Shown: positions 15,521 through 40,460, numbered from the stretch's first letter. The stretch: 64,000 bases of DNA from Yuukianura sp. NJ FZ-2021 (GCA_046563655.1 JAJCTO010000010.1:1-64000), one strand, 5' to 3'. The notes: generated by a model from the sequence alone, not told the origin. Translations and numbers: made by a program.

Positions 15521-16001
15521 ACTATTTTACTTGAGCGTATGGAGACACGTCTTAACCTTAGAAAATGGAATGCAGCATAGAATGTCTTTCGACGCCCACG
15601 AATCCGTGTACGAAGAATATCAACTTCAAGGTCAATTCGAATATATAACCACTTTCAGTGCCGGCGTTCTTGGTGAAATCATCTTTATTTACTTGTCACA
15701 CTGCTTTAATGCATGACTTTCCTACGCAGGGACGATTGCCACTAGCTTTTTTTCGCGCTGAATAAAAATCGCTGATTTTTAGAAAAAAAACAAATTTAAC
15801 CCCCAAAACTACAACTAGAACGTATTTTTTCGTATTTTGAGAAATATTTCGAAAAAAAAAATTTTTTCAGATTTTTTTGAATTTTCCCGCGTTTTTTCTG
15901 GCGGTAAAGGCCAGTTCACACCGGAGTAGAACGGGGAAAGTGATTGAATGCTAATTCACTTTCGGCGATGAGATTGGAAGTATTCGCATAAAACAATGGA
16001 C

Positions 16002-16781: not shown

Positions 16782-16924
16782 TTCCACTTGGTTGGTGTCT
16801 TTGAGGAATTACCAAAAAAAAAAACACTTCTTCTTCTTCTTGTTAAAAAAAACGTTAGGCATCGACTGCCAAAAGGGCTGTGACTGATTTGGGATGTGGG
16901 GCATATACCGTAGGATATATGCAT

Positions 16925-16984
16925 GAGGTTGGACCTACGTAGGTCCAACCTCCTGCGTATGGTTGGACCTACATAGGTCCAACC
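16925..16984. repeat. Tandem pair of palindromes inside the TTAA element
   Basis: A perfect 28-bp palindrome gaggttggacctac|gtaggtccaacctc (16925-16952) is followed by a near-identical 24-bp one (16961-16984). Both are repeated in copy 2 (~20843-20902). Confidence 0.9.
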
Positions 16985-19708
16985 TCCACCAGCTGGCGGT
17001 TGAAGTGTCGCCTATATCTCACTACCTTAAACTTTGCGTAATTTCGTGTAGTTACGCGTAAAATCAAGCTCGCGCCTCGCAATTTTAGGCGGGAAACTTC
17101 GCCGAGCGAAGAGAGTGAGCAAAAGGCTGAAAGGGACGACCGTCCCTTCCTAGGTCCGCAAAGCAACTTGTGAAAAAAGCACCGATCGAGTGGCAATTGT
17201 CCCTTCGTTAAGGCGCAAGCCGTCTAAAAGTGACGGATCCTCAGGCGTTAACATCCCTTTAGTAAGTGTGACGTGAACTTCAAGCATTTTACTATTTTAC
17301 TTGAGCGTATGGAGACACGTCTTAACTTTAGAAAATGGAATCCAGCATAGAATGTCTTTCGACGCCCACGAATCCGTGTACGAAGAATATCAACTTCAAG
17401 GTCAATTCGAATATATAACCACTTTCAGTGCCGGCGTTCTTGGTGACCTCATATTTTTTTCTTGTCACACTGCTTTAACATCCCTTTAGTAAGTGTGACG
17501 TGAACTTCAAGCATTTTACTTGAGCGTACGGAGACACGTCTTAACCTTAGATAATGGAATCCAGCATAGAATGTCTTTCGACGCCCACAAATCCGTGTCC
17601 AAAGAATATCAACTTCAATGTCAATTGGAATATACAGCCACTTTCAGTGGCGGCGTTCTTGGTGAAATCACCTTTCTTACTTGTCACACTGCTTTAACAT
17701 CCCTTTAGTAAGTGTGACGTGAACTCCAAGCATTTTACTTGATCGTATGGAGACACGTCTTAACCTTAGAAAATGGAATCCAGCATAGAATGTCTTTCGA
17801 CGCCCACGAATCCGTGTACGAAGAATATCAACTTCAAGGTCAATTCGAATATATAACCACTTTCAGTGCCGGCGTTCTTGGTGAAATCATCTTTTTTTAC
17901 TTGTCACACTGCTTTAACATCCCTTTAGTAAGTGTGACGTGAACTTCAAGCATTTTACTATTTTACTTGAGCGTGTGGAGACACGTCTTAACCTTAGAAA
18001 ATGGAATCCAGCATAGAATGTCTTTCGACGCCCACGAATCCGTGTACGAAGAATATCAACTTCAAGGTCAATTCGAATATATAACCACTTTCAGTGCCGG
18101 CGTTCTTGGTGAAATCATCTTTTTTTACTTGTCACACTGCTTTAACATCCCTTTAGTAAGTGTGACGTGAACTTCAAGCATTTTACTATTTTACTTGAGC
18201 GTATGGAGACACGTCTTAACCTTAGAAAATGGAATCCAGCATAGAATGTCTTTCGACGCCCACGAATCCGTGTACGAAGAATATCAACTTCAAGGTCAAT
18301 TCGAATATATAACCACTTTCAGTGCCGGCGTTCTTGGTGAAACCATCTTTTTGTACTTGTCACACTGCTTTAACATCCCTTTAGTAAGTGTGACGTGAAC
18401 TTCAAGCATTTTACTTGAGCGTACGGAGACACGTCTTATCCTTAGAAAATGGAATGCAGCATAGAATGTCTTTCGACGCCCACGAATCCGTGTACGAAGA
18501 ATATCAACTTCAAGGTCAATTCGAATATATAACCACTTTCAGTGCCGGCGTTCTTGGTGAAATTAACTTTTTTACTTGTCAGACTGCTTTAACATCCCTT
18601 TAGTAAGTGTGACGTGAACTTCAAGCATTTTACTTGAGCGTATGGAGACAGGTCTTAACCTTAGAAAATGGAATCCAGCATAGAATGACTTTCGACGCCC
18701 ACCAATCCGTGTACGAAGAATATCAACTTCAAGGTCAATTCGAATATATAACCACTTTCAGTGCCGGCGTTCTTGGTGAAATCATCTTTTTTTACTTGTC
18801 ATACTGCTTTAACATCCCTTTAGTAAGTGTGACGTGAACTTCAAGCATTTTACTATTTTACTTGAGGGTATGGAGACACGTCTTAGCCTTAGAAAATGGA
18901 ATGCAGCATAGAATGTCTTTCGACGCCTACAAATCCGTGTACAAAGAATATCAACATCAAAGTCAATGCGAATATATAACCACTTTCAGTGCCGGCGTTC
19001 CTGGTGAAATCATCTTTTTTTACTTGTCACACTGCTTTAACATCCCTTTAGTAAGTGTGACGTGAACTTCAAGCATTTTACTTGAGGGTATGGAGACACG
19101 TCTTAGCCTTAGAAAATGGAATGCAGCATAGAATGTCTTTCGACGCCCACGAATCCGTGTACGAAGAATATCAACTTCAAGGTCAATTCGAATATATAAC
19201 CACTTTCAGTGCCGGCGTTCTTGGTGAAATCAACTTTTTGTACTTGTCAGACTGCTTTAACATCCCTTTAGTAAGTGTGACGAGCACATCAAGCATTTTA
19301 CTTGAGCGTGTGGAGACACGTCTTAACCTTAGAAAATGGAATCCAGCATAGAATGTCTTTCGACGCCCACGAATCCGTGTACGAAGAATATCAACTTCAA
19401 GGTCAATTCGAATATATAACCACTTTCAGTGCCGGCGTTCTTGGTGAAATCATCCTTTTTTACTTGTCACACTGCTTTAACATCTCTTTAGTAACTGTGA
19501 CGTGAACTTCAAGCATTTTACTATTTTACTTGAGCGTATGGAGACACGTCTTAACCTTAGAAAATGGAATGCAGCATAGAATGTCTTTCGACGCCCACGA
19601 ATCCGTGTACGAAGAGTATCAACTTCAAGGTCAATTCGAATATATAACCACTTTCAGTGCCGGCGTTCTTGGTGAAATCATCTTTATTTACTTGTCACAC
19701 TGCTTTAA

Positions 19709-21165
19709 TGCATGACTTTCCTACGCAGGGACGATTGCCACTAGCTTTTTTTCGCGCTGAATAAAAATCGCTGATTTTTAGAAAACAGATTTTTTTGAAT
19801 TTTCCCGCGTTTTTTCTGGCGGTAAAGGCCAGTTCACACCGGAGTAGAACGGGGAAAGTGATTGAATGCTAATTCACTTTCGGCGATGAGATTGGAAGTA
19901 TTCGCATAAAACAATGGACGATGGCCGCCATGTTGGTTTTCGACGACGTGAAATTTTCGCGGTTCGCGAAAATTCGCCATTCGCGAAAATTCGCGATTTT
20001 TTCACAAAATCGCGGCCATAAAAGTATCGGGTGGCGGAGAGTTCTAATTCAGGTGTAACTCCGCCATTTTGAATGTTACGCAAAATTTCACGGCGCGCCG
20101 CGAATATGGATAAAACGACGTTTTTAGTTGCCTGAACTAAAATCGCATACAATGTCCAGTACTCCGAAGAATTTTACGTCGCCAAATTGCATTTTCGTCA
20201 ATGTTACAGTTTTCGCGAGTCGCGCCGTGAAATTTCGCGAAATTACGCAGAACAGGCGTGAGTCATACACGGCGTCCTCTCGCACGTGAAAACCACAACA
20301 GGTGCACACCAGATCATCGTTTCCCCGAAATTTCACGGCGCGTACCGTGGAATTCTTCTGTACCATTTTAGACCGAAAAATGACGTTCAAAACCGCCGCA
20401 GGACGCCGGGTTGGGATTCTCTACTACCCTATACCCTTTAGGTGTGATTGTTATCAAGTATCGCAAATTTTTGCGAATTGCGATTTTACGCAAATTGTTC
20501 TTTTTTCGAATTACGATTTTTCGCGAAGCGATTCTTGGCGAATGAAAAATTTACGCGATTTGCGAATTTTCACGAGATGCGGTTTTCGCAATTTTCGAAT
20601 TTTCGTCACATGCGTCTTACACGATTTGCAAATTTTCGCGAATTGCAAATTCACGAATTCGTAAAATTCACGTCGTCCAAAACCAACACGGCGGCCATCT
20701 TCCACTTGGTTGGTGTCTTTGAGGAATTACCAAAAAAAAAACACTTCTTCTTCTTCTTGTTAAAAAAAAACGTTAGGCATCGACTGCCAAAAGGGCTGTG
20801 ACTGATTTGGGATGTGGGGCATATACCGTAGGATATATGCATGAGGTTGGACCTACGTAGGTCCAACCTCCTGCGTATGGTTGGACCTACATAGGTCCAA
20901 CCTCCACCAGCTGGCGGTTGAAGTGTCGCCTATATCTCACTACCTTAAACTTTGCGTAATTTCGTGTAGTTACGCGTAAAATCAAGCTCGCGCCTCGCAA
21001 TTTTAGGCGGGAAACTTCGCCGAGCGAAGAGAGTGAGCAAAAGGCTGAAAGGGACGACCGTCCCTTCCTAGGTCCGCAAAGCAACTTGTGAAAAAAGCAC
21101 CGATCGAGTGGCAATTGTCCCTTCGTTAAGGCGCAAGCCGTCTAAAAGTGACGGATCCTCAGGCG
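19709..21165. mobile_element. Non-autonomous TTAA-specific DNA transposon (copy 2, 1457 bp)
   Basis: Same ends, orientation and monomer position as copy 1, with TTAA at 19705-19708 and 21166-21169. It has an ~80-bp deletion near the left end relative to copy 1. Confidence 0.8.
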
Positions 21166-22854
21166 TTAACATCCCTTTAGTAAGTGTGACGTGAACTTCA
21201 AGCATTTTACTATTTTACTTGAGCGTATGGAGACACGTCTTAACCTTAGAAAATGGAATCCAGCATAGAATGTCTTTCGACGCCCACGAATCCGTGTACG
21301 AAGAATATCAACTTCAAGGTCAATTCGAATATATAACCACTTTCAGTGCCGGCGTTCTTGGTGAAATCATCTTTTTGTACTTGTCACACTGCTTTAACAT
21401 CCCTTTAGTAAGTGTAACGTGAACTTCAAGCATTTTACTTGAGCGTATGGAGACACGTCTTAACCATAGAAAATGGAATCCAGCATAGAATGTCTTTCGA
21501 CGCCCACAAATCCGTGTACGAAGAATATCAACTTCAAGGTCAATTCGAATATACAGCCACTTTCAGTGGCGGCGTTCTTGGTGAAATCAACTTTCTTACT
21601 TGTCAGACTGCTTTAACATCCCTTTAGTAAGTGTGACGAGCACATCAAGCATTTTACTTGAGCGTATAGAGACACGTCTTAACCTTAGAAAATGGAATCC
21701 AGCATAGAATGTCTTTCGACGCCCACGAATCCGTGTACGAAGAATATCAACTTCAAGGTCAATTCGAATATATAACCACTTTCAGTGCCGGCGTTCTTGG
21801 TGAAATCATCTTTTTTTACTTGTCACACTGCTTTAACATCTCTTTAGTAACTGTGACGTGAACTTCAAGCATTTTACTATTTTACTTGAGCGTATGGAGA
21901 CACGTCTTAACCTTAGAAAATGGAATGCAGCATAGAATGTCTTTCGACGCCCACGAATCCGTGTACGAAGAGTATCAACTTCAAGGTCAATTCGAATATA
22001 TAACCACTTTCAGTGCCGGCGTTCTTGGTGAAATCATCTTTATTTACTTGTCACACTGCTTTAACATCCCTTTAGTAAGTGTGACGTGAACTTCAAGCAT
22101 TTTACTATTTTACTTGAGCGTATGGAGACACGTCTTAACTTTAGAAAATGGAATCCAGCATAGAATGTCTTTCGACGCCCACGAATCCGTGTACGAAGAA
22201 TATCAACTTCAAGGTCAATTCGAATATATAACCACTTTCAGTGCCGGCGTTCTTGGTGACCTCATATTTTTTCTTGTCACACTGCTTTAACATCCCTTTA
22301 GTAAGTGTGACGTGAACTTCAAGCATTTTACTTGAGCGTACGGAGACACGTCTTAACCTTAGATAATGGAATCCAGCATAGAATGTCTTTCGACGCCCAC
22401 AAATCCGTGTACAAAGAATATCAACTTCAAGGTCAATTCGAATATACAGCCACTTTCAGTGGCGGCGTTCTTGGTGAAATCAACTTTTTTTACTTGTCAG
22501 ACTGCTTTAACATCTCTTTAGTAAGTGTGACGAGAACATCAAGCATTTTACTTGAGCGTATGGAGACACGTCTTAACCTTAGAAAATGGAATCCAGCATA
22601 AAATGTCTTTCGAAGCCCACAAATCCGTGTACAAAGAATATTAACATCAAAGTCAATTCGAATATACAGCCACTTTCAATGCTGGGTTTCTTGGTGAAAT
22701 CATCTTTTTTTACTTGTCACACTGCTTTAACATCCCTTTAGTAAGTGTGACGTGAACTTCAAGCATTTTACTATTTTACTTGAGCGTATGGAGGCACGTC
22801 TTAACCTTAGAAAATGGAATCCATCATAGAATGTCTTTCGACGCCCACGAATTC

Positions 22855-25800
22855 GATTTCTACTAAAAACAAAAAAGAGATGCCTGTAAAACAGACAGCT
22901 ACCTGACGTACATACTCAAACTTGTATAGGGTCAATTTATCCCTGAGTCGTACAAGCAAGCAAAATGTGACCCGTCAGCAATGCTGTTGATAAGGGTTGC
23001 TGCTTACATCAATACACGCTAACTTTGACCAAGCTTAGCAAAAATTTTCTGAGTAATGTTAACATACGTAAATAATAAGGACTGCGTGACGCCTGACAAC
23101 TTGTCTGTTTACTCAGGCGATTCATATTTAAAGTCACTTCTCTGGAAAAATATCATGGTTATGCTAGAATAAATTTGTCTACAGCGAAGCTAACCTGAAT
23201 GCAGACAGTTGTTGTTTGATTTCTACTAAAAACAAAAAAGAGATGCCTGTAAAACAGACAACCACCTGACGTACATGCTCAAACTGGTATAGGGTCAATT
23301 TATCCCTGAGTCGTACAAGCAAGCAAAATGTGACCCGTCAGCAATGTTGTTGATAAGGGTTGCTGCTTACATCAATACACGCTAACTTTGACCAAGCTTA
23401 GCAAAAATTTTCTGAGTAATGTTAACATACGTAAATAATAAGGACTGCGTGACGCCTGACAACTTGTCTGTTTACTCAGGCGATTCATATTTAAAGTCAC
23501 TTCTCTGGAAAAATATCATGGTTATGCTAGAATAAATTTGTCTACAGCGAGGCTAACCTGAATCCTGACAGTTGTTGTTTGATTTCTACTAAAAAGAAAA
23601 AACAGATGCCTGTAAAACAGACAGCCACCTGACGTACATACTCAAACTGGTATAGGGTGAATTTATCCCTGAGCCGTACAAGCAAGCAAAATGTGACCCG
23701 TCAGCAATGCTGTTGATAAGGGTTGCTGCTTACATCAATACACGCTAACTTTGACCAAGCTTAGCAAAAATTTTCTGAGTAATGTTAACATACGTAAATA
23801 ATAAGGACTGCGTGACGCCTGACAACTTGTCTGTTTACTCAGGCGATTCATATTTAAAGTCACTTCTCTGGAAAAATATCATGGTTATGCTAGAATAAAT
23901 TTGTCTACAGCGAAGCTAACCTGAATGCAGACAGTTGTTGTTTGATTTCTACTAAAAACAAAAAAGAGATGCCTGTAAAACAGACAACCACCTGACGTAC
24001 ATACTCAAACTGGTATAGGGTCAATTTATCCCTGAGTCGTACAACCAAGCAAAATGTGACCCGTCAGCAATGTTGTTGATAAGGGTTGCTGCTTACATCA
24101 ATACACGCTAACTTTGACCAAGCTTAGCAAAAATTTTCTGAGTAATGTTAACATACGTAAATAATAAGGACTGCGTGACGCCTGACAACTTGTCTGTTTA
24201 CTCAGGCGATTCATATTTAAAGTCACTTCTCTGGAAAAATATCATGGTTATGCTAGAATAAATTTGTCTACAGCGAGGCTAACCTGAATGCAGACAGTTG
24301 TTGTTTGATTTCTACTAAAAACAAAAAAGAGATGCCTGTAAAACAGACAGCCACCTGACGTACATACTCAAACTGGTATAGGGTGAATTTATCCCTGAGT
24401 CGTACAAGCAAGCAAAATTTGACCCGTCAGCAATGTTGTTGATAAGAGTTGCTGCTAACATCAATACACGCTAACTTTGACCAAGCTTAGCAAAAATTTT
24501 CTGATTAATGTTAACATACGTAAATAATAAGGACTGCGTGACGCCTGACAACTTGTCTGTTTACTCAGGCGATTCATAGTTAAAGTCACTTCTCTGGAAA
24601 AATATCATGGTTATGCTAGAATAAATTTGTCTACAGCGAGGCTAACCTGAATGCAGACAGTTGTTGTTTGATTTCTACTAAAAACAAAAAAGAGATGCCT
24701 GTAAAACAGACAACCACCTGACGTACATACTCAAACTGGTATAGGGTGAATTTATCCCTGAGCCGTACAAGCAAGCAAAATGTGACCCGTCAGCAATGCT
24801 GTTGATAAGGGTTGCTGCTTACATCAATACACGCTAACTTTGACCAAGCTTAGCAAAAATTTTCTGAGTAATGTTAACATACGTAAATAATAAGGACTGC
24901 GTGACGCCTGACAACTTGTCTGTTTACTCAGGCGATTCATATTTAAAGTCACTTCTCTGGAAAAATATCATGGTTATGCTAGAATAAATTTGTCTACAGC
25001 GAAGCTAACCTGAATGCAGACAGTTGTTGTTTGATTTCTACTAAAAACAAAAAAGAGATGCCTGTAAAACAGACAACCACCTGACGTACATACTCAAACT
25101 GGTATAGTGTCAATATATCCCTGAGTCGTACAACCAAGCAAAATGTGACCCGTCAGCAATGTTGTTGATAAGGGTTGCTGCTTTACATCAATACACGCTA
25201 ACTTTGACCAAGCTTAGCAAAAATTTTCTGAGTAATGTTAACATACGTAAATAATAAGGACTGCGTGACGCCTGACAACTTGTCTGTTTACTCAGGCGAT
25301 TCATATTTAAAGTCACTTCTCTGGAAAAATATCATGGTTATGCTAGAATAAATTTGTCTACAGCGAAGCTAACCTGAATGCAGACAGTTGTTGTTTGATT
25401 TCTACTAAAAACAAAAAAGAGATGCCTGTAAAACAGACAACCACCTGACGTACATACTCAAACTGGTATAGGGTCAATTTATCCCTGAGTCGTACAACCA
25501 AGCAAAATGTGACCCGTCAGCAATGTTGTTGATAAGGGTTGCTGCTTTACATCAATACACGCTAACTTTGACCAAGCTTAGCAAAAATTTTCTGAGTAAT
25601 GTTAACATACGTAAATAAAAAGGACTGCGTGACGCCTGACAACTTGTCTGTTTACTCAGGCGATTCATATTTAAAGTCACTTCTCTGGAAAAATATCATG
25701 GTTATGCTAGAATAAATTTGTCTACAGCGAGGCTAACCTGAATGCAGACAGTTGTTGTTTGATTTCTACTAAAAACAAAAAAGAGATGCCTGTAAAACAG

Positions 25801-28315
25801 ACAGCCACCTGACGTACATACTCAAACTGGTATAGGGTGAATTTATCCCTGAGCCGTACAAGCAAGCAAAATGTGACCCGTCAGCAATGCTGTTGATAAG
25901 GGTTGCTGCTTACATCAATACACGCTAACTTTGACCAAGCTTAGCAAAAAATTTTTGATTACTGTTAACATACGTAAGTAAAAAGGACTGCGTGACGCCT
26001 GACAACTTGTCTGTTTACTCAGGCGATTCATAGTTAAAGTCACTTCTCTGGAAAAATATCATGGTTATGCTAGAATAAATTTGTCTACAGCGAGGCTAAC
26101 CTGAATGCAGACAGTTGTTGTGTGATTTCTGCTAAAAACGAAAACAGATGCCTGAAAAACAGACAGACACCTGACGTTCATACTCAAACTGGTATAGTGT
26201 CAATATATCCCTGAGTCGTACAACCAAGCAAAATGTGAGCCGTCAGCAATGCTCTTGATAAGTGTTGCTGCTTACATCAATACACGCTAAATTTGACCAC
26301 GCTTAGCAAAAATATTCTGAACACTGATAACACACCTAGATAAAAAGGACTGCGTGACGCCTGACAACTTGTCTATTTAGTCAGGCGATTCATATTTCAA
26401 GCCACTTTTATTGACAAATATCATGGTTATGCTAGAATAAATTTGTCTACAGCGAGGCTAACCTGAATGCAGACAGTTGTTGTTTGATTTCTACTAAAAA
26501 CAAAAAAGAGATGCCTGTAAAACAGACAGCCACCTGAATACGCAAACTGGTTATAGGGTCAATTTATCCCTGAGTCGTACAACCAAGCAAAATGTGACCC
26601 GTCAGCAATGTTGTTGATAAGGGTTGCTGCTTTACATCAATACACGCTAACTTTGACCAAGCTTAGCAAAAATTTTCTGAGTAATGTTAACATACGTAAA
26701 TAAAAAGGACTGCGTGACGCCTGACAAGTTGTCTGTTTACTCAGGCGATTCATAGTTAAAGTCACTTCTCTGGAAAAATATCATGGTTATGCTAGAATAA
26801 ATTTGTCTACAGCGAGGCTAACCTGAATGCAGACAGTTGTTGTTTGATTTCTACTAAAAACAAAAAAGAGATGCCTGTAAAACAGACAGCCACCTGACGT
26901 ACATACTCAAACTGGTATAGGGTGAATTTATCCCTGAGCCGTACAAGCAAGCAAAATGTGACCCGTCAGCAATGCTGTTGATAAGGGTTGCTGCTTACAT
27001 CAATACACGCTAACTTTGACCACGCTTAGCAAAAATATTCTGAACACTGATAACATACCTAAATAAAAAGGACTGCGTGACGCCTGACAACTTGTCTGTT
27101 TACTCAGGCGATTCATAGTTAAAGTCACTTCTCTGGAAAAATATCATGGTTATGCTAGAATAAATTTGTCTACAGCGAGGCTAACCTGAATGCAGACAGT
27201 TGTTGTTTGATTTCTACTAAAAACAAAAAAGAGATGCCTGTAAAACAGACAACCACCTGACGTACATACTCAAACTGGTATAGGGTCAATTTATCCCTGA
27301 GTCGTACAACCAAGCAAAATGTGACCCGTCAGCAATGTTGTTGATAAGGGTTGCTGCTTACATCAATACACGCTAACTTTGACCAAGCTTAGCAAAAAAG
27401 TTCTGATTACTGTTAATATACGTAAGTAAAAAGGACTGCATGACGCCTGACAACTTGTCTGTTTACTCAGGCAATTCATATTTAAAGTCACTTCTCTGGA
27501 AAAATATCATGGTTATGCTAGAATAAATTTGTCTACAGCGAGGCTAACCTGAATGCAGACAGTTTTTGTTTGATTTCTACTAAAAACAAAAAAGAGATGC
27601 CTGTAAAACAGACAGCCACCTGAATACGCAAACTGGTTATAGGGTCAATTTATCCCTGAGTCGTACAAGCAAGCAAAATGTGACCCGTCAGCAATGCTGT
27701 TGATAAGGGTTGCTGCTTACATCAATACACGCTAACTTTGACCAAGCTTAGCAAAAAAGTTCTGATGACTGTTAACATACGTAAGTAAAAAGACTGCGTG
27801 ACGCCTGACAACTTGTCTGTTTACTCAAGCGATTCATATTTAAAGTCACTTCTCTGGGAAAATATCATGGTTATGCTAGAATAAATTTGTCTACAGCGAG
27901 GCTAATCTGAATGCAGACAGCTGTTGTGTGATTTCTGCTAAAAACGAAAACAGATGCCTGAAAAACAGACAGACACCTGACGTTCATACTCAAACTGGTA
28001 TAGTGTCAATATATCCCTGAGTCGTACAACCAAGCAAAATGTGAGCCGTCAGCAATGCTCTTGATAAGTGTTGCTGCTTACATCAATACACGCTAACTTT
28101 GACCAAGCTTAGCAAAAAAGTTCTGATTACTGTTAACATACGTAAGTAAAAAGGACTGCGTGCCGCCTGACAACTTGTCTGTTTACTCAGGCAATTCATA
28201 TTTAAAGTCACTTCTCTGGAAAAATATCATGGTTATGCTAGAATAAATTTGTCTACAGCGAGGCTAACCTGAATGCAGACAGTTGTTTGATTTCTACTAA
28301 AAAGAAAAAACAGAT
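22855..28315. repeat. Satellite B: 363-bp monomer, ~15 copies
   Basis: gatttctactaaaaa recurs at 22855, 23218, 23581, 23944, 24307 and onward (period 363). No similarity to SatA or SatC is visible and there are no long ORFs. Variant monomers increase toward the right end. Confidence 0.97.
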
Positions 28316-29124
28316 TCTATTAATCCTGCTTAATATGGTTGAAATTAAATAGACCTGCCAAATACACAACACCAAACGGTTTCAGGGATAACGTTTGAAT
28401 GCTGCAATATGGCACTTACAATATATCGCAATTCAGGCAGGCGAGAGCCCCATGATACATAGGTTTTTGGGTTCACAACTGCGATTAAAAAAACACGAGT
28501 TCTAGTTTGTGTTGGAAATTTGCCATATTTCACTGATTACATAACATGACGTTGCTTCTCACATAAGAATGAAACAGCACGAAAATCGACGCATTGATTC
28601 GCTTTCGAAGTACCACAAATGCTTTTAAAGACCTGTCAAACACACAACACCAAACTGTGTCAGGGATAACGTTTTGAATGCTGCAATGTGGCACTTGCAA
28701 TATATCGCAATTCAGGCAGGCGAGAGCCCCATGATACATAAGTTTTTGGGTTGACAACTGCGATTATCAATCAATCAATCAATCAATCAATTAGTTTATT
28801 TGACATTGGCAATTGCCCTATCAAGTTACACTGTTTCGAGCTGAACTTCGGTAGTAGTAGTAGTAAACGGTAATTGGTAAGGTAATACTAGTTGGAATTT
28901 AAAAACTTAGCGTAGAAAAACTGGGTTGCACGTACTGTATGAAGGGTTAAAATAGGTATTTTAATCGAGTGTGTTTTAGTTTTGGTTTCATCGGTTGATC
29001 AAGGAGGAGAAATATGGGAGATAGCACTAGTTATTTTAGCGGTGGAATTGGAATACCGTAGATTTGAGAGTTGATGAGTTTCGAGTGAGCTGGAAGCCGG
29101 AATAGCGTTTTGGAGGACGGAGGA

Positions 29125-29823
29125 TTACGGTATAGATGAGCTGTTCCTCCAGGAGCCAGAGGTTGATGTACCTGGTGGACGTGGGCGGGTTCTTAGGTCA
29201 TTCTCTCTTGCTTCACGTTTCTTCTGAATTTCCATTCTAGTTTCAGCAGTGAGGTCTCCTGTGATGGAGTAGATCTCTCGGTAGTTGATAAGCGTTTTTC
29301 TAAGTTGAAGAGCTTGCATTCTGTTAGAGAAGGTCGGGAAGCGTACTTTGATTGGCCGGGGCTTGTTGGACAACGAGTTTGGTTTCCCTATTCGGTATGC
29401 ATCTTCTATGTTCACCTGAACTTTGTAGTTTTCAAAGAACTCTTTTGCGACATTAACAGTGTTTTCAGCTGGAGCCTCCGGGTATCCATGGATTAGCAAG
29501 TTGTTTTTTCTTATTTCATCAGTGAGCCGGGAGTTTTGTTTCTTTAGGAAATCGATTTCGTTCTGTTGTCGTTTATTTTCTGCTTGTAGGTCCTGAATTT
29601 GTACATATCCAGCTTCAGTTCAATTGTGCCGAATCTGGAGTCAATTTTCGATCCAATTTTTGATTCGACCTGATGCAACAATTTTGTCATCATTTCCATT
29701 AAATCGCTATTTGAGACGTTTGATCTTTTGGGGTTTGGCGTTTCATCAAAGCTTGAGTCAGTTTCTGCGGCACGTTTGCTTGCCTTATTTTGTGGAATAA
29801 ACGGGTAGCTTGGTTTGTGACAT
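29125..29823 (-). pseudogene. LINE ORF1p-like protein (coiled coil + RRM/CTD, L1-ORF1/Transposase_22-like), two frameshifts
   Basis: Manual translation gives MSQTKL/PFIPQNKASKRAAETDSSFDETPNPKRS...LMEMMTKLLHQVESKIGSKIDSRFGTIELKLD/..QIQDLQAENKRQQNEIDFLKKQNSRLTDEIRKNNLLIHGYPE...IEDAYRIGK...KPRPIKVRF...ITGDLT. The NNLLIxGxPE, RIG, RPIxVRF and IxxDLT motifs are typical of this ORF1 class. Frameshifts fall near 29803 and 29603. Confidence 0.8.
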
Positions 29824-30258
29824 TTTTGTTGCTTTTTGATGCAAACGATCAGTTAGGGAGAGCAATTGAATTGATTTTATGACTTTGATTTTATTAATCA
29901 CTAATTTAAACTTAATCGTGAGAAGTTGCGAATTGAAAAAGTGCGAAGTTAAAATCTGACTTAATGAATGAATTGAAGTGTAAGTAAAGACTATGACTTG
30001 TATTCCTATACTAATGCTATTCTGTTCTTAGACTATTTCGATGTTGTGTTGATTTTTCTTTCTTTTTTACCGTTGAGACGCTTCCTATAGCTTAAGGATA
30101 AAAGTCAAAGCTAACCCTATCCTAAGGCTAAAAGTAGACGCTATTCTAAAGTCTATGTTTTTGTTATTTCAAAAAATGTACAAAGGAAAAGCCACAACAA
30201 TTTTCTGCGACTCGAGGGAGCGTGAGACTGGCATTAACTTTTGATGTGGTGGGGTTTT

Positions 30259-30647
30259 CAGGTTACACTGCTGAGTTACTTTTGACCCTAGGTTACCCTA
30301 CTGGGTTACCTTTGACCTTTGGTTATCCTGCTTGATTATCTCGGGTTACCCTACTGGGTTACCTCAGGTTACCCTACTGGGTTACCTCAGGTTACCCTAC
30401 TGGGTTACCTCAGGTTACCCTACTGGGTTACCTTAGGTTACCCTACTGGGTTACCTCAGGTTACCCTACTGGGTTACCTTTGACCTTTGGTTATCCTGCT
30501 TGATTATCTCGGGTTATCCTGCTTGATTATCTCGGGTTACCCTACTGGGTTACCTCAGGTTACCCTACTGGGTTACCTTAGGTTACCCTACTGGGTTACC
30601 TCAGGTTACCCTACTGGGTTACCTTAGGTTACTCTACTGTGTTACCT
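30259..30647. repeat. Minisatellite (23-bp unit ttaccctactgggttacctcagg) in the 5' UTR of the ORF1-only element
   Basis: Repeated GGTTACC-based 13+10-bp subunits, interspersed with a ggttatcctgcttgattatctc variant. Confidence 0.9.
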
Positions 30648-31624
30648 TTTGCAGCTGAGGAATGGTTGTCAGTGGATTAGATGCTAACCAGGTTTAAGAG
30701 TTCGGGGTGGATTGACTATTTCTCTGACACGGCAGATTCCGCAGGTTCGTACTTTTAACCGATTAATTAGCTGGTGAGAGGATCTTGGCAGTGGTTCTAG
30801 CAGATTACTAGTGTGGGGAGGTCGGTTTGTTGTGATAATCCGCTACTGGATTGATTTTAACAGTAGAAGTTCTAAATTCGGTAACGTCAGCTGATTCAGA
30901 GTAGTGGAAATTGGTTTTACCGTTAAGTGTCGTTAATCGTTTCCAGTCGGTGAGTGTTTGACTTCAGTCGATGCAGTAGTGAATTTTGAGTGTTTTGATG
31001 TATGACACTGGCAGGTAGGACGATTATTTCACTGCTAAAAAATCAATTTTGTCGGGAGCTACGTTTTATGTGTCAGCTCTCTTTTCTCCATCTCTAACAC
31101 TCACAACTGCGATTATAAAAACACGAGTTCTAGTTTGTGTTGGAAATTTGCCATATTTCACTGATTACATGACATGACGTTGCTTCTTACATAAGACTGA
31201 AACAGCACGAAAATCGACGCATTGATTCACTTTGAAGTACCACAAATGTTTTTAAAGACCTGCCAAATACACAACACCAAACGGTGTCAGGGATAACGTT
31301 TTGAATGCTGCAATGTGGCACTTACAATATATCGCAATTCAGGCAGGCGAGAGCCCCATGATACATAAGTTTTTGGGTTCACAACTGCGATTAAAAAAAC
31401 ACGAGTTCTAGTTTCTGTTGGAAATTTGCCATATTTCACTGATTACATGACATGACGTTGCTTCTTACATAAGACTGAAACAGCACGAAAATCGACGCAT
31501 TGATTCACTTTGAAGTACCACAAATGTTTTTAAAGACCTGCCAAATACACAACACCAAACGGTTTCAGGGATAACGTTTGAATGCTGCAATATGGCACTT
31601 ACAATATATCGCAATTCAGGCAGG

Positions 31625-32121
31625 TGTAGGATAAGTTGGTATTTCTATTTTTTAGTTAAGACTAACTTTAAGTTTCCCGCCCTTTGAAACGAAAGGTCCG
31701 TTTTTTATGAGACTTTGTGGGCCTATAGGTTTAAGTATTTAGAGTATTCCCTATAAGTTATAGCTTCGCCACAAGTCGCGTTTGTAAGTAGTGGGTGGAG
31801 ACAGGGTGCGTCGGTTAGCGTCTGGCGTCTGGCCTTCGGCTATTCTGTGTTTTCTCCTCTCCCTCTTTTTGTGTGTTCCCATAAGAATAAGTATAAAATA
31901 CGACAAAATTCAGACTTTGAAGAGACAACACGTAACATAAGTTTTCTAAGTTGTCAATAATTGGATTTAATTGGTAAAGAATATTAATAAACTAGTAAAA
32001 CTAACATCCACCACAGCCCGAACGATCAGTCCATTTAGCAGCGTTTGAGAGCCGGCCAAGTTACAGAACTCCCATTGATATAGCGTAATCGACGGGTAGT
32101 TGGTTAGCGCTATATTTTACA
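31625..32121 (+). repeat. 5' LTR (497 bp)
   Basis: TGTAGG...TTTACA; direct repeat of 37676-38171 with about 6 substitutions and 1 indel by eye. Confidence 0.95.
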
Positions 32122-32125
32122 TTTG

Positions 32126-32134
32126 TGGTGACCC
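32126..32134 (+). promoter_or_regulatory. Putative primer-binding site (TGGTGACCC, tRNA-Trp-like)
   Basis: A TGG-initiated motif 4 nt after the 5' LTR. It is complementary to the ...GGGUCACCA 3' end of eukaryotic tRNA-Trp over only 9 nt. Confidence 0.5.
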
Positions 32135-32332
32135 TCGGAGTAAACTTGGAGTTGTTCGATCCACGCCGCCTTGGAGGATCGTTCTGGAGGATCACTGCAT
32201 ATCACTGATAAACAACAGTATACGTAGAGGCAACCACTGCCGGAGTGTGGTTAAGCAAGGTGATTGTCGCTCTAGTGACGATTATTAGTATTCCTACTAA
32301 TTTCTGGTTTTCTTTGAATCTTATTTTGAGAC

Positions 32333-35300
32333 ATGGATCGTGCTAAGAAAGCAAGAGATCTACAGAGACTCGACGTCACGGACCTAATCGCGAATTTGGA
32401 GTCCGAATTGAAGAGAGAATTGGTTTCTGAAAATGACGTCATCGCGGCTGTTACCATGTTGGATGACGCAGTGGAGACATTGGCGGATCTCAACGAGCAG
32501 GTGCTGACTTTTCTTTTGGATGATGAATCCTCAACCCCAGAGACGTTGTACACGGAGCGTCGTGTCAACAATGACATCAAAAGGAAAGCAACGTTAGTGA
32601 AGATTGAAGCAAAGAAGATTCTCCATCCACCTGTCAAGTTACAGAATCGTTCGTCAAATGATGACGACGCATCTTCTACCAGCCGACACAGGAAGATGAA
32701 GTTACCAAAGACAGAGTTTCGCAAGTACTCTGGAGAACTGGTCGACTGGATTGGATGGTGGTCACAATTTAAGAAGATTGACGACGATGACGAAATACAC
32801 GTTGTGGACAAGTTTGGTTAACTCGTTCAATGTATGGTGCGGGGATCCAAAGCAGAGGAAGTAGTCAAGCGGTACCCAGAGTCGGCCGAGAACTACCCAA
32901 AGGCTTTGGAGGCACTAAAAGAGAGGTTCGGGAATCCGAAACTGCTAAAACAAGTGTATGTTCGAGAACTAATGAAGTTGATGTGGGACACTTGGGCGAA
33001 GGAAAAGAAGTCATTGGACATCCTGTACGGAAAATTAGAAGCTTCTCTTCAGTCTCTACAGTCCCTTGGCGTAAGTGTTGACAACATGGTTGAACTGTTG
33101 TTTCCTATGGTGGAATCCTGCTTGCCGGAGGACATTTTGGTTGCTTGGCAACGAAGTTCTGACTTTGGGCGTGATGGTTCCAAGGAGAACCCACCAAAGA
33201 GTGAACTTGATTTCCTACTGGCATTTCTGAAGAGAGAAGCGGGCAACAAGGAACAACGGGCACTTACTCAGATTGGTTTTGGACCTGGTCCTAGCCAAAA
33301 GAAGAAAAGCCACAGCAGTCCCAGAGAAGAAGAAGATGTGCCCACGGCGGGTGGACTGTTCAGTGGACAATTTGAAAACAAAGAGAGAAGCCTGTGCTTG
33401 TTCTGTGAGAAGCAACATCCCTCTAAAGAGTGCTTTAAGGCACAGAAGATGACATTAGAAGACAGAAAAGAGGTCATCAAGAAGAAGGGTGTTTGTTTTT
33501 CGTATTTAAAAGGCGGACATAGGGCTAATAAGTGTCGTAGTACTCCTCAGTGCCTTGTCTGCGGTAAGAAGCATTTGGTTCTACTCTGCCCCCAGATCTC
33601 ATCGTCATCCAAAGGCTCCAGTGATGGAAAAGACAAAGATGATGGGAAGAAAAATCAGACTGTGCTCTCAAGTCTAAGTGTACCAGCGAAGTCGTACTCC
33701 AGACGCTGATCGTGCAGTTGGAGAATCCAGTGAGCCACAAGAAGAAGAACGTTCGTGTTCTAGTCGACTGCGGGAGTCAGAAGTCTTACATCCTAGATTG
33801 TACGGCCAAGGAGCTGGATCTGGATCAGAAGGACACCGTGGTCATGAATCATTCATTGTTTGGAGGGACAACTGTCGCGGAATAAGCATTCAATCTACAA
33901 GGTTCTAATCGGCAGTGTTTCTTCTAAGTTTTCAGTTCCTCTCCTTCTCCTGGACCAGCATCAGATCTGCGGAGCAATTCCGAGAATTACGCCTGGCCCA
34001 TGGATGAAGATGCTCAGAGACAGAGGAATTACGTTGAACGACTTTGACCCGAAGAATCCCGTCGAAATTGAAGTTTTGTTGGGTGCAGACACCATTGGAC
34101 AATTTCTGACTGGGAAGATCTTTCGTCTTAAGAACGGGCTGACGGCAACAGAGACAAGATTGGGTTGGACGGTCATGGGAGCTACAGGAAGACAGAGCAA
34201 TTCTGAAGACGTAGCCATGACTGTGGTTTCCATGACTATCGCTAGTTCGACAGTCGCCCAGCTTTGGTCCTTGGATGTCCTTGGAATTCGTGACCCGTGG
34301 AGAAGAAGACGCAAGAAGACCGGGAGAGAGAAGCCATTGAAAATTTTCAGAAGACAGTCACTACAGATCCTGAGGGAAGATACACTGTCTCTCTACCTTG
34401 GATCAATGGCTCTCAATCTCTTCCTACAAATCGGGCAGTGGCTCAGAAGCGGTTGGAAAACACCACTCGGAAGTTAGTGTCTCTGAATCGGTTCTCAGAT
34501 TATGACAAAGTGTTTCAAGAATGGGAATCCGAGGGCATAATTTCAGTGGTAGAGGACTTAGGTGACAGTGAGAGTGTTCCGTGTCATTATGTTCCTCATC
34601 GCGAAGTCTTCAAGGCCAGCTTAACTACTCCAGTGCGTCCAGTGTTTGACGCTTCGTGCAAGGTCGGGAGGAATCAGTCACTTAATGAGTGCCTGGAGAA
34701 AGGACCGAATCTGCTTGAGCTTCTCCCATCAATTCTACTTCGTTTCCGGATGGGGAAGATCGGTGTCATAGCAGATATCCGTAAGGCCTTTCTAATGATC
34801 AATGCGAAAGAAAGTGATCGTGATTTCCTGCGATTCTTATGGTGGGAGGACAAGGAACGACAAAAAGTGAAAGTGTTTCGGCACAGCCGAGTCTTTTTTG
34901 TAATGAACTGTAGTCCATTCCTTTTAGGTGCAGTCGTCTTCCATCATCTGAACCAGCATCGGTGTGAAAATCCCGAGGTCGTAAGTTTAATTGAAAGGTC
35001 TCTTTACGTGGACAATGTAGCTCTTACAGTGAACAGTGATTCCGAGTATGAAAAAGTGAAATCAGTTTCTTCAGGCATTTTTTCACAGGCTACTATGGAC
35101 CTTAGACAGTGGGAAAGAACCGGTGTTTGGACTGATCAAATCATTACCAGTGTTCTAGGGATGAAGTGGGATAAGAAGGCGGACACGATTTTTTGTGATG
35201 TGGTTCCTACCATTATTCCACTAAAAGTTACACTAAAAGTTAGTAAAAGAGTTTTTTTTTTTTTTTTTTTTGAATGGGTACGAGAGGTAGTCCCCCCTAA

Positions 35301-37442
35301 GGGCCTTACACTACTTCGCGTTGTGAGTGGCTTACTATCTTCCATTCGGCTAGAGAAGGTGACTCTAGGTATTAGGAAAAACACATCGGGAAAAACGCTA
35401 ATACAAAGTTGATAAGCAAGACAACTCGGGACGTCACTTTACAGTTACGTTACATATGCTGATGAGAAAGGTAGGTCCACTGTTTGTTTTTACGGAGAGT
35501 TTACAGCTCTCCAACCTCATGGGAACAGACTCATCAGCATGGAATGAAATTGAAAGGGAATAAGGAAATTGCAAATTCCTTATGCTCATAGGCAATTTTT
35601 CATTCACTTTTTTTATTGCGAGTGACCGACAGGATTCGATCTCACAGACAGGCAAATGGATGAATAGAGACTCGTACCATGGTGCCAATTGATATAATAC
35701 CTATGCTAGCATGGCTCGCATAGGTATTATCTCAATTGCAGAAACTCTTTGACCCCCTAGGACTTTGGACTCCAGTTGTCACTCTACCGAAAGTACTTCT
35801 TCAACAAGCATGGAACGAGAACAAGACTTGGGATGAAGAAGTATCTACAGAAATGAAGACAGAATTCCTCAGTTGGTCAAAGGAATTCGCTGAAGTGAGT
35901 GACAAAGTTCAACTACCTCGAGACTGCACCAGTGGAACAACCAGAGACAACCGAAAGATGCAAATTCATGTGTTTGGTGATGCAAGTAAGAAGGCTTACG
36001 CTACGGTGGTGTTTCTTCGCATTGAAACTCAAGACGGTGTCAAAATCCGATTTATTCAGGCGAAATCAAGAGTAGCACCACTGAAACCAACCACAATCCC
36101 CAGATTGGAGCTTCTTTCGTGTGGCATTTCAGCAAGACTGGTGACAGCAATTAAGTCAGCATTAGACCTCGAAGACGACGTTCCGACTTTCCTTTGGACG
36201 GATTCCAGCACGGCCCTGTCGTGGCTTCGCCGAAGTGACGAGTGGGGGACGTTCGTGGGGAATAGGGTCAAGGAGATCCTGAAGCTGACGAAAGTAGAAA
36301 ACTGGAACCACATTCCGGGTTTGGAAAATCCGGCAGATCTGCCATCCAGGGGGACTTCTCCGACCAGGTTCGTGTTGGCGCGATGGTGGGAGGGACCTGA
36401 TTGGTTGAAATTGGAAAAGGAGATGTGGCCCAGATCAGAATCATCGGTGGACGAAGATGCAGTCAATCAGGAGCGTAAGAAGAGTATCGCGACACTCACG
36501 AACATAACTACTCCTGCGCCTGTCTCGTCACCATGGTATGTCAGAAAGAATTCGTTTCATCAGACTCTTCGTGTTTTTGCTTATGTCATCCGGTTTGTGA
36601 GTATTTTGAAGGAAGAGTCGACAGAGAAGTCCGAGATTCCTGCCATCACAGAACTGGAGGAGGCAGAACGAAGATTGATCAAGATCATTCAGGAGGAATC
36701 ATTAACCATGGACAAAAGTGTCATTCAGGGTTTGAGAGTGATAGTGGACTCAGATGGACCACTAAAAGTGAAAACCAAAGTGACCAATCGAGTTGACACA
36801 GACACTTTTAGGAAACCAATTTTACTTCCACATTCTCATCCCATTGTCAATCTCATCATCCGGGACACTCACATCTTCAACGCACACGGAGGAGCACAGC
36901 TGATGATGGCCAAGTTAAGAGAAAAGTACTGGATCATCCAGGGCAGAAGAGCCATCAAGAAAGTGATAACCAAGTGCATCGTGTGTAAGAGGTTTGATGG
37001 TAAGACAGTTGAAGTTGTGGCTAGTGCTCTACCGGAACCAAAGGAGCAGAAGACCAGGTCACATCGCATTCGAGAAATCGTGCTCATCGAAGTGGATAAT
37101 AAGAAGAGGATTTTCTGGCCAATGGGGAGGATTCTGGAGCTGCTTCTTGGGAAGGATGGAGAAATTCGGGTAGCCAGATTGAAGACGAAGAATGGAGAGC
37201 TACTACGTCCCATCCAACGACTCGTGCCATTGGAATTGAGACATGACGAGATACCGGAACCACCAGTCAAGACAGCCGAGAGCTCCAACGTCATCGAGAA
37301 CGAATCTGCAGTGGAAAGTGACAGCGACACTTACTGCGAGTGTCTGCCCTGCCAAGACAAAGACGAGGTCATCACTGCAGAACCAGAACAGACTACAAGA
37401 AGCGGACGGACCATTCGGAAACCGATTCGCTATGGTATTTGA
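32333..37442 (+). pseudogene. BEL/Pao gag-pol polyprotein, disrupted
   Basis: Gag DUF1759-like region (KLPKTEFRKYSGELVDWIGWWSQF; ENYPKALEALKERFG), three Cys/His knuckles (CLFCEKQHPSKEC, CFSYLKGGHRANKC, CLVCGKKHLVLLC), protease VLVDCGSQKSYI (~33757-33792), RT (RPVFDAS, ADIRKAFL, LYVDN), Pao RNase H (HVFGDASKKAY, TIPRLEL, WTDSS, NPADLPSRG), integrase HHCC and a DUF5641-like C-terminus (WPMGRI...GKDG..R). It has a stop at 32819-32821, several frameshifts, a nested insert at ~35252-35717, and the integrase DDE core is missing. Confidence 0.93.
35252..35717 (-). mobile_element. Poly(A)-tailed insert nested in BEL pol (probable 5'-truncated LINE/SINE fragment)
   Basis: The conserved Pao motif 'xxKR-x-(V)LS..QKLFDPLG' is split after AAA AGA G (35251) by 20 T plus ~450 bp of unrelated DNA. 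pol resumes at about 35724 (GTA TTA TCT CAA TTG CAG AAA CTC TTT GAC CCC). There is no clear TSD and the right boundary is approximate. Confidence 0.65.
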
Positions 37443-37653
37443 AATCATCGTTTTGGATAAGTGTTAATTTTAAGGATTGATTTCAGTTTTAATTTTATTT
37501 TAGAGTTTAAGTTTTGTTTTCATTGATTCATTTTAGGTTAAGTGTTTTAGTTAGTTTTTTTTTAACTTAAGGCACTTTCCCCTTTGTTTTTGGTGCTAAA
37601 CCATAACGTGCTATTTCAATTTTAATTTTGTGACTTTCCCTTTCGTTAGCACT

Positions 37654-37675
37654 GAAAGGAAAAGGTGGGAGTAAA
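37654..37675 (+). promoter_or_regulatory. Polypurine tract
   Basis: gaaaggaaaaggtgggagtaaa lies immediately upstream of the 3' LTR TG. Confidence 0.8.
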
Positions 37676-38171
37676 TGTAGGATAAGTGGTATTTCTATTT
37701 TTTAGTTAAGACTAACTTTAAGTTTCCCGCCCTTTGAAACGAAAGGTCAGTTTTTTATGAGACTTTGTGGGCCTATAGGGTTAAGTATTTAGAGTATTCC
37801 CTATAAGTTATAGCTTCGCCACAAGTCGCGTTTGTAAGTAGTGGGTGGAGATAGGGTGCGTCGGTTAGCGTCTGGCGTCTGGCCTTCGGCTATTCTGTGT
37901 TTTCTCCTCTCCCTCTTTTTGTGTGTTCCCATAAGAATAAGTATAAAATACGACAAAATTCAGACTTTGAAGAGACAACACGTAACATAAGTTTTTTAAG
38001 TTGTCAATAATTGGATTTAATTGGTAAAGAATATTAATAAACTAGTAAAGCTAACATCCACCACAGCGCGAACGATCAGTCCATTTAGCAGCGTTTGAGA
38101 GCCGGCCAAGTTACAGAACTCCCATTGATATAGCGTAATCGACGGGTAGTTGGTTAGCGCTATATTTTACA
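37676..38171 (+). repeat. 3' LTR (496 bp)
   Basis: Direct repeat of 31625-32121, TGT...ACA, followed by TSD GGCAGG. Confidence 0.95.
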
Positions 38172-40460
38172 GGCAGGCGAGAGCCCCATGATACATTTGA
38201 TAACGTTTTGAATGCTGCAATGTGGCACTTACAATATATCGCAAGTCAGGCAGGCGAGAGCCCCATGATACATGAAAAGTTTTTGGGTTCACAACTGCGA
38301 TTAAAAAAACACAAGTTCTAGTTTGTGTTGGAAATTTGCAATATTTCACGGATTACATGACATGACGTTGCTTCTTACATAAGACTGAAACAGCACGAAA
38401 ATCAACGCATTGATTCACTTTGAAGTACCACAAATGCTTTTAAAGACCTGTCAAACACACAACACCAAACGGTTTCAGGGATAACGTTTGAATGCTGCAA
38501 TGTGGCACTTACAATATATCGCAATTCAAGCAGGCGAGAGCCCCATGATACATAAGTTTTTGGGTTCACAACTGCGATTAAAAAAACACGAGTTCTAGTT
38601 TGTGTCGGAAATTTGCCATATTTCACTGATTACATAGCATGACGTTGCTTCTTACATAAGACTGTAACTGCCGGAAAATCGACGCATTGATTCGCTTTCG
38701 AAGTACCACAAATGCTTTTAAAGACCTGCCAAATACACAACACCAAACGGTTTCAGGGATAACGTTTGAATGCTGCAATGTGGCACTTACAATATATCGC
38801 AATTCAAGCAGGCGAGAGCCCCATGATACATAAGTTTTTGGGTTCACAACTGCGATTAAAAAACACGAGTTCTAGTTTGTGTTGGAAATTTGCCATATTT
38901 CACTGGTTACATAGCATGACGTTGCTTCTTACATAATACTGTAACTGCCGGAAAATCGACGCATTGATTCGCTTTCGAAGTACCACAAATGCTTTTAAAG
39001 ACCTGTCAAACACACAACACAAAACGGTGTCAGGGATAACGTTTTGAATGCTGCAATGTGGCACTTACAATATATCGCAATTCAGGCAGGCGAGAGCCCC
39101 ATAATACATAAGTTTTTGGGTTCACAACTGCGATTAAAAAAACACAAGTTCTAGTTTGTGTTGGAAATTTGCAATATTTCACGGATTACATGACATGACG
39201 TTGCTTCTTACATAAGACTGAAACAGCACGAAAATCAACGCATTGATTCACTTTGAAGTACCACAAATGCTTTTAAAGACCTGTCAAACACACAACACCA
39301 AACGGTTTCAGGGATAACGTTTGAATGCTGCAATGTGGCACTTACAATATATCGCAATTCAAGCAGGCGAGAGCCCCATGATACATAAGTTTTTGGGTTC
39401 ACAACTGCGATTAAAAAACACGAGTTCTAGTTTGTGTCGGAAATTTGCCATATTTCACTGATTACATAGCATGACGTTGCTTCTTACATAAGACTGTAAC
39501 TGCCGGAAAATCGACGCATTGATTCGCTTTCGAAGTACCACAAATGCTTTTAAAGACCTGCCAAATACACAACACCAAACGGTTTCAGGGATAACGTTTG
39601 AATGCTGCAATGTGGCACTTACAATATATCGCAATTCAAGCACGCGAGAGCCCCATGATACATAAGTTTTTGGGTTCACAACAGCGATTAAAAAAACACG
39701 AGTTCTAGTTTGTGTTGGAAATTTGCCATATTTCACTGATTACATAGCATGGCGTTGCTTTTTACATAAGACTGTAACTGCCGGAAAATCGACGCATTGA
39801 TTCGCTTTCGAAGTACCACAAATGCTTTTAAAGACCTATCAAACACACAACACAAAACGGTGTCAGGGATAACGTTTTGAATGCTGCAATGTGGCACTTA
39901 CAATATATCGCAATTCAAGCAGGCGAGAGCCCCATGATACATAAGTTTCTGGGTTCACAACTGCGATTAAAAAAACACGAGTTCTAGTTTGTGTTGTAAA
40001 TTTGCCATATTTCACTGGTTACATAGCATGACGTTGCTTCTTACATAATACTGTAACTGCCGGAAAATCGACGCATTGATTCGCTTTCGAAGTACCACAA
40101 ATGCTTTTAAAGACCTGTCAAACACACAACACAAAACGGTGTCAGGGATAACGTTTTGAATGCTGCAATGTGGCACTTACAATATATCGCAATTCAGGCA
40201 GGCGAGAGCCCCATAATACATAAGTTTTTGGGTTCACAACTGCGATTAAAAAACACAAGTTCTAGTTTGTGTTGGAAATTTGCAATATTTCACGGATTAC
40301 ATGACATGACGTTGCTTCTTACATAAGACTGAAACAGCACGAAAATCAACGCATTGATTCACTTTGAAGTACCACAAATGCTTTTAAAGACCTGTCAAAC
40401 ACACAACACCAAACGGTTTCAGGGATAACGTTTGAATGCTGCAATGTGGCACTTACAATA

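Follow-up and report, generated by a model that had tools for sequence, protein, structure and literature searches.

The 64,000-nucleotide stretch of DNA analyzed here (the window) comes from Yuukianura sp. NJ FZ-2021 (GCA_046563655.1 JAJCTO010000010.1:1-64000). At 28768-31102 it carries a retroelement unit of 2,335 bp on the minus strand, with its 5' end at 31102 and its 3' end at 28768. An earlier reading of the window, made from the sequence only, had described this unit as a retroelement without long terminal repeats (LTRs) that encodes the first open reading frame (ORF1) of a long interspersed element (LINE) but not the second (ORF2). Here we describe the unit and its gene, and weigh the ways in which it may have come to lack ORF2. 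Its parts, listed from the 5' end to the 3' end in window coordinates, are as follows.

31103..31116, no strand assigned: target-site duplication on the 5'-end side, ACAACTGCGATTAT, identical to 28754-28767
29824..31102, minus strand: 5' untranslated region (UTR), 1,278 nt
30321..30647, minus strand: minisatellite in the 5' UTR, 23-bp repeat, 13.9 copies, 87% matches, with a 168-bp higher-order unit
29544..29852, minus strand: N-terminal and coiled-coil part of ORF1, with an open reading of 102 codons (stop to stop) in a second frame only
29821..29823, minus strand: ATG, probably ancestral, sharing its frame with the RNA recognition motif (RRM) and the stop, with an in-frame stop after 12 codons
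29125..29619, minus strand: C-terminal part of ORF1, 164 amino acids (aa) stop to stop, matching at 152 bits a hidden Markov model (HMM) of relatives that excludes the window sequence
29512-29616, minus strand: end of the ORF1 coiled coil, within the 29125..29619 frame
29257-29508, minus strand: RRM of ORF1, within the same frame
29125-29127, minus strand: stop codon of ORF1, following a C-terminal helix, within the same frame
28792..29124, minus strand: 3' UTR, 333 nt, no coding signal
28800..28824, minus strand: small hairpin around the palindrome GGCAATTGCC, predicted by folding
28795..28800, minus strand: AATAAA signal, read directly
28768..28791, minus strand: 3' tail, (ATTG)6, period 4, 100% matches
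28754..28767, no strand assigned: target-site duplication on the 3'-end side, ACAACTGCGATTAT, identical to 31103-31116

How can a target-site duplication be told from the periodicity of a satellite? The unit lies in a short stretch of 279-bp satellite, with the same satellite on either side. ACTGCGATTA occurs at 82 sites in the window, 80 of them in uninterrupted monomers and the remaining two at the flanks of the element. The uninterrupted monomers read GATTAAAAAA, that is, GGGTTCACAACTGCGATTAAAAAA(A)CAC. Both flanks read GATTAT, with a private T, whereas all 80 of the other monomers read GATTAA. Because the private T is shared by both flanks, the two copies of the duplication descend from one monomer site, and the flanking repeat is a true target-site duplication rather than satellite periodicity. 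The copies match at 14 of 14 positions, or at 15 of 16 with a two-base extension. An AT at the border between tail and duplication can be read as part of either, a microhomology of 2 nt.

The same junctions record how the insertion was made. On the primer (plus) strand, the nick follows GATTAT, and the inserted DNA opens with the ATTG repeats in complementary form. Apart from the target-site duplication, the ends of the unit show no terminal direct or inverted repeats, that is, neither LTRs nor terminal inverted repeats. Judged by its anatomy, the insertion bears the signature of target-primed reverse transcription. These observations support the identification of the unit as a non-LTR retroelement insertion with a target-site duplication and a microsatellite tail, as the sequence-only reading had it; the 2.33-kb size given there also agrees with the 2,335 bp measured, and the duplication falls inside a single 279-bp monomer.

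The non-coding ends of the unit are long at the 5' side and short at the 3' side. The 5' UTR was described earlier as about 1.28 kb with a minisatellite, and we found the same. By analogy with the 5' repeat arrays of other LINEs, its 23-bp repeats are likely to be the promoter region. No RNA polymerase III head (tRNA, 7SL or 5S) was found by an Rfam search of 28000-32000 at E<=1, which returned four sub-threshold, unrelated matches; the unit thus does not have the head that marks a short interspersed element (SINE). The region after the ORF1 stop measures 357 nt with the tail included, close to the earlier figure of about 350 bp. Its UTR portion contains three fragments of 41-53 aa, none with a Pfam match. 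The AATAAA and the (ATTG)6 tail are both present, and the ATTG run is unique in the window (four overlapping pattern matches, all in the tail, with 0.93 expected by chance). The stem-loop that completed the earlier description of this end is the part that did not hold up well. For 60 nt around the predicted hairpin, the folding energy is -11.4 kcal/mol (z -1.4), a value that 20 of 200 shuffled sequences equal or better; for a region of 132 nt, z is +0.26.

The unit contains one gene, and it is broken. From the ATG at 29823 to the stop at 29125, the coordinates are in frame (29823 and 29619 are each a multiple of 3) and span 699 nt, or 233 codons, which is the length of about 230 codons that the sequence-only reading had assigned to an open ORF1. 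However, the middle of this span, at about 29610-29790, is open only in a frame other than that of the ATG and the stop, and the longest ATG-started ORF in the element encodes 64 aa. We compared the two pieces with an HMM built from 59 relatives, with the window sequence left out. In addition to the match of the C-terminal piece, the N-terminal frame matches profile positions 5-57, colinearly but weakly (E ~1). Two frameshifts that offset each other interrupt the 233-codon frame, and this copy is dead; alternatively, both frameshifts could be assembly errors in this one sequence. It had also been proposed that the element supplies its own RNA-chaperone ORF1 protein (ORF1p). With its gene frameshifted, this copy supplies none.

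Is the broken gene really that of an ORF1p? Pfam returned only sub-threshold coiled-coil families for the two ORF pieces, with no match to Transposase_22, the Pfam model of type II ORF1p, at E<=1 and none to a zinc knuckle. Since Pfam gave no link to ORF1p, a family profile was needed. A word-indexed protein search with the single ORF recovered only five relatives. Searched exhaustively with phmmer, 1.84 billion representatives yielded 300 relatives at E<=1e-3, of which 10 reach <=1e-10 but none <=1e-30. The strongest match, at E 1.3e-18, is 40% identical, and identity nowhere exceeds 44%. Transposase_22 was detected in 1 of 30 relatives scanned, at 19.3 bits against a cut-off of 22.4. A profile of 60 sequences (A1) matched human LINE-1 ORF1p structures 2ykp (E 8e-20), 2yko (1.6e-19) and 2ldy (2.6e-12) as well as the isolated RRM 2w7a (5e-9), and the match to 2ykp spans both the coiled coil and the RRM.

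Structure prediction points the same way. The AlphaFold2 model (predicted local distance difference test score, pLDDT, 93.1; predicted template modelling score, pTM, 0.79) has a long helix (residues 2-36), a beta-alpha-beta-beta-alpha-beta core and a C-terminal helix. In a Foldseek search with this model, the 11 best PDB chains were all L1 ORF1p, followed by generic RRMs; the top chain, 2ykp_A, was matched at E 2e-6 with a template modelling (TM) score of 0.69 and 23% identity. When three copies were modelled, the prediction was a trimer, parallel and in register, joined through helix residues 4-36, with a score of 0.62 against 0.00 for the best control, agreement between runs on at least 92% of contacts and, for the partners, a pLDDT of at least 78. 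Of 30 proteins solved as same-chain pairs, 21 attain the mark for this score, against 0 of 23 solved as single chains, a calibration on pairs that differs from the three copies modelled here. The pass shows likeness only, and because the human trimer has been solved, it may be an echo of that known structure (2ykp). By profile and by predicted fold, then, the ORF is L1-ORF1p-like, with a coiled coil and an L1-type RRM. These are the comparisons that the sequence-only reading had put forward as a check on its ORF1p-like coiled-coil/RRM gene, and both came out in its favor.

A profile search for relatives at near lengths gave 23 matches, all unnamed except for one Spodoptera exigua hypothetical protein. 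In the ESM Atlas, arthropod clusters automatically named 'Endonuclease-reverse transcriptase' and clusters of Baculo_FP type appeared, which serve as no more than leads; in the Pfam scan of 30 relatives, none matched Baculo_FP at E<=0.01. Longer fused forms of the relatives comprised three carp annotations as Unc-13 and no fusion to a reverse transcriptase (RT). The carp proteins (P0156-P0158), which bear the annotation Unc-13 homolog C, reach about 1e-21 against the ORF1 profile and are likely to be cases in which an ORF1-like segment was absorbed into a gene model. Separately, three ORF1-like coiled-coil/RRM relatives carry a C-terminal NADAR domain (P0057, P0062 and P0164; E 4e-29 and 1e-33, with P0164 from a precomputed PF08719 assignment), and P0173 and P0174 have PF01205. 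Additions of such domains to a LINE ORF1 are unusual.

An L1-type ORF1 can also reside in a host gene. ORF1-derived host genes exist (PMC4161310), and the unit might not be a LINE derivative but a retrocopy of a host gene that, like L1TD1, was domesticated from ORF1, or else an assemblage formed by chance. We consider this very improbable. The unit ends in a LINE-type tandem-repeat tail with no poly(A), its leader of 1.28 kb contains a repeat array typical of LINE 5' UTRs, and its target-site duplication is unambiguous.

The C-terminal end of the protein differs from that of L1 ORF1p. In a section of PMC4120745, type II ORF1 is defined by a coiled coil and an RRM as well as a C-terminal domain (CTD). 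The window ORF stops 41 residues past its ..ITGDL motif, and nine close relatives (eight of them in alignment A2) stop 27-40 residues past theirs. Across the wider set of 155 proteins, a regular expression picked out the motif in 49, with tails of 12-317 residues and a median of 51. In A2, nine of the 10 relatives finish at the same position as the window ORF, and the match to 2ykp ends at residue 160 of the 229 in that chain. As judged from these alignments, the ORF and its closest relatives lack the L1 CTD and end about 40 residues after the RRM. We rejected a CTD hidden in another frame beyond the stop, because the closest relatives terminate at the same place.

Nothing recognizable as ORF2 accompanies this gene. 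An autonomous LINE has an ORF2 with endonuclease and RT; here, the ORF1 stop is followed by the tail after only 333 nt. No RT or endonuclease match was found by Pfam at E<=0.1 in the 22 other stop-to-stop fragments of at least 40 aa on both strands of the unit, in keeping with the earlier statement that it shows no trace of apurinic endonuclease or RT, and no LINE ORF2 is present anywhere in the 64-kb window.

When was ORF2 lost? One answer is that a full-length, two-ORF LINE inserted here and later lost ORF2 through a single internal DNA deletion, a one-off event with no family behind it. Such a deletion would have left the target-site duplications in place. The copy is old enough to have acquired two frameshifts, the surrounding satellite is rearranged (for example, by the 3.9-kb duplication at 16038 / 19956), and no second copy backs a family. 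However, both breakpoints would have had to fall in narrow zones, one just past the ORF1 stop and the other just before the 3' UTR. Moreover, the deletion would have had to leave no recognizable fragment of ORF2, and ORF1 ends at the natural C-terminus of its family. A single random deletion would rarely leave ORF1 whole to its natural stop with no scrap of ORF2 on either side, and this favors an RNA that was already free of ORF2. We regard later deletion as unlikely, though it deserves to be kept in view.

An ORF2-less RNA does not by itself imply a lineage. An aberrant transcript of an autonomous LINE, whether spliced, internally deleted or template-switched, could have been copied once in trans and founded nothing. 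This account fits the same anatomy as an ORF2-less lineage, and the window gives no evidence of more copies. No splice or switch junction is marked in the sequence, and without the parent element the two accounts are indistinguishable. We judge it improbable.

The explanation that we favor is that the unit is a dead copy of an ORF2-less LINE derivative lineage that target-primed reverse transcription placed in a 279-bp satellite monomer, although we hold it tentatively, at a little under an even chance. Whatever chance attaches to the lineage and to the one-off transcript counts jointly towards a point common to both, which we infer: that the RNA lacked ORF2 before it was copied. This also draws on the repeated origin of ORF1-only derivatives elsewhere. 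According to the favored explanation, the RNA at the time of copying would already have been made up of a long 5' UTR bearing the 23-bp array, one gene and a 333-nt 3' UTR. The intact gene would have encoded an L1-ORF1p-like protein of about 230 residues with a basic N-terminus, a coiled coil for trimerization, a single RRM and, where L1 has its CTD, a short helical tail, and this protein presumably coated the RNA of the element. RT would have been supplied in trans by a partner LINE of the kind that has short tandem repeats, not poly(A), at its end and recognizes its own 3' end. At the satellite monomer, as the junctions show, a nick was made in the plus strand after GATTAT, the insert opens with the complement of an (ATTG)n RNA tail, and the duplication took in about 15 bp of target. 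After insertion, the copy would have acquired its two frameshifts and become inert.

Several findings weigh against this lineage explanation. There is no second copy in the window, where all nine blastn high-scoring segment pairs are self-matches, so a single copy was examined; nor was a partner LINE or a shared tail seen within the window. Because the gene is broken, there is no sign that an intact master exists. A near-identical intact sibling was not seen either (top identity 44%), although the source genome may lie outside the library. The predicted 3' hairpin, which would be the recognition signal for a partner RT, is no better than chance. The unit lies in satellite, where deletions are common. 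Finally, this copy was picked for its clean look, and that selection weakens any argument from its clean junction. Beyond the window, the genome sequences scanned were prokaryotic contigs, in which there was no locus related by alignment A2 and no match to the 24-nt tail pattern.

A more specific version of the lineage explanation is also somewhat less likely: that the copy is a fossil of an ORF1-only lineage outside mammals and fly telomeres, an analogue of HAL1 in a LINE group with tandem-repeat ends, with a CTD-less trimeric chaperone, which captured the RT of its partner through a mimicked hairpin-plus-(ATTG)n end.

How does the unit compare with known elements that lack ORF2? HAL1, as outlined in part of PMC5753468, is an ORF1-only derivative of L1 that originated several times in mammals. 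Like the unit, it is LINE-derived and kept a 5' UTR, an L1-type ORF1 and the 3' end, while the loss of ORF2 left it to be mobilized in trans (PMC5753468, same account). In the unit, the HAL1-type combination of ORF1 without ORF2 is shown for this one copy, and the intact ORF1 of that type is absent because of the two frameshifts. It further differs from HAL1 in ending with (ATTG)6 and in having an ORF1p without a CTD, and it is known here from one copy. HAL1 is derived from L1 and has a poly(A) 3' end.

The second comparison is with flies. Drosophila telomeric elements have a Gag-like, type I ORF1 with zinc knuckles. ORF1-only telomeric elements of the Jockey clade originated in dozens of Drosophila lineages through repeated loss of ORF2, according to a portion of a preprint (bioRxiv 10.1101/2025.06.09.658640). 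The unit resembles HeT-A and these elements in having ORF1 only and in its expected reliance on the ORF2 protein of another element (same portion of bioRxiv 10.1101/2025.06.09.658640); type I ORF1 is defined in a section of PMC4120745. However, HeT-A forms head-to-tail telomeric arrays, whereas the unit is a single satellite insertion with a coiled-coil/RRM ORF1 and a tandem-repeat tail; neither a CCHC Gag-like ORF1 nor a telomeric array was found.

The protein and the 3' end each have their own parallels. L1-type (type II) ORF1 is present in the CR1, L2 and R1 clades besides L1, as listed in the same section of PMC4120745. The likeness to human LINE-1 ORF1p lies in a coiled coil followed by a non-canonical RRM (profile E 8e-20, TM 0.69, modelled parallel trimer). 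In contrast, identity is about 23%, the window protein has no counterpart of the last ~70 residues of the crystallized protein, and it goes undetected by the Transposase_22 model. Stringent-type LINEs recognize a 3' stem-loop, as the abstract of PMC5135761 states. The unit resembles those of the CR1/L2 group and their SINEs in having a short tandem 3' end after a hairpin candidate, but here the hairpin is without statistical support and the unit has no RT that we could find.

The sequence-only reading had offered the unit as the best candidate for an undescribed system. This was overstated, given that ORF1-only LINE derivatives have been described at least in the portions noted above of PMC5753468 (HAL1) and bioRxiv 10.1101/2025.06.09.658640 (Drosophila telomeric elements). 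They are a known kind; what would be new is a tandem-repeat-tailed member with a CTD-less ORF1p. A literature search, with most subscription journals and Repbase outside its scope, found no such element. It also yielded no record tying ATTG repeats to a CR1 or other non-LTR clade and no match to 'HAL1-like'.

The unit shares its surroundings with other mobile and repeated DNA. Tandem satellite makes up about nine tenths of the window (1-64000), in three mutually unrelated unit types: 220/228 bp (1-22852), 363 bp (22855-28315) and 277-279 bp (38199-40460 and 41470-64000). GC skew changes sign at the borders of the satellite arrays. The setting looks heterochromatin-like or pericentromeric. A BEL/Pao LTR retrotransposon (31637-37986, plus strand) is inserted into the same 279-bp satellite as the ORF1 element. 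It has direct repeats of at least 300 nt (31637-31936 / 37687-37986, 99% identical) and ORFs that match DUF1759, Peptidase_A17, Integrase_H2C2 and DUF5641, with its frame in several pieces and no rve core reported. At 40461-41469, a 1,009-bp element with a TA duplication breaks a 279-bp satellite monomer. With perfect 29-bp terminal inverted repeats (40461-40489 / 41441-41469) and no ORF of at least 110 aa, it looks like a non-autonomous DNA transposon of Tc1/mariner type. In the 220/228-bp satellite, two near-identical non-satellite inserts of about 1.5 kb each (15709-17248 and 19708-21166) lie 3,918 bp apart. They contain CG-rich microrepeats (16-17 bp and 33 bp) and near-identical frames of 124 aa and 117 aa, one of which was scanned against Pfam and gave no match. 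The pair indicates a segmental repeat of about 3.9 kb (16038 / 19956).

Why might a single dead insertion matter? For the present, its value is as a clean example of insertion with an unusually well-documented empty site, represented by 80 paralogous satellite monomers. If a family stands behind the copy, then the strategy of HAL1 and HeT-A, in which the RNA-binding ORF1 is kept and RT is stolen, would extend to a tandem-repeat-tailed group of LINEs. Such a family would also provide a natural ORF1p that works without the CTD, a defining part of the type II architecture. If the copy is indeed the fossil of an ORF1-only lineage, loss of ORF2 with retention of ORF1 would be a general and recurrent strategy of LINEs, including those that strictly recognize their own 3' ends.

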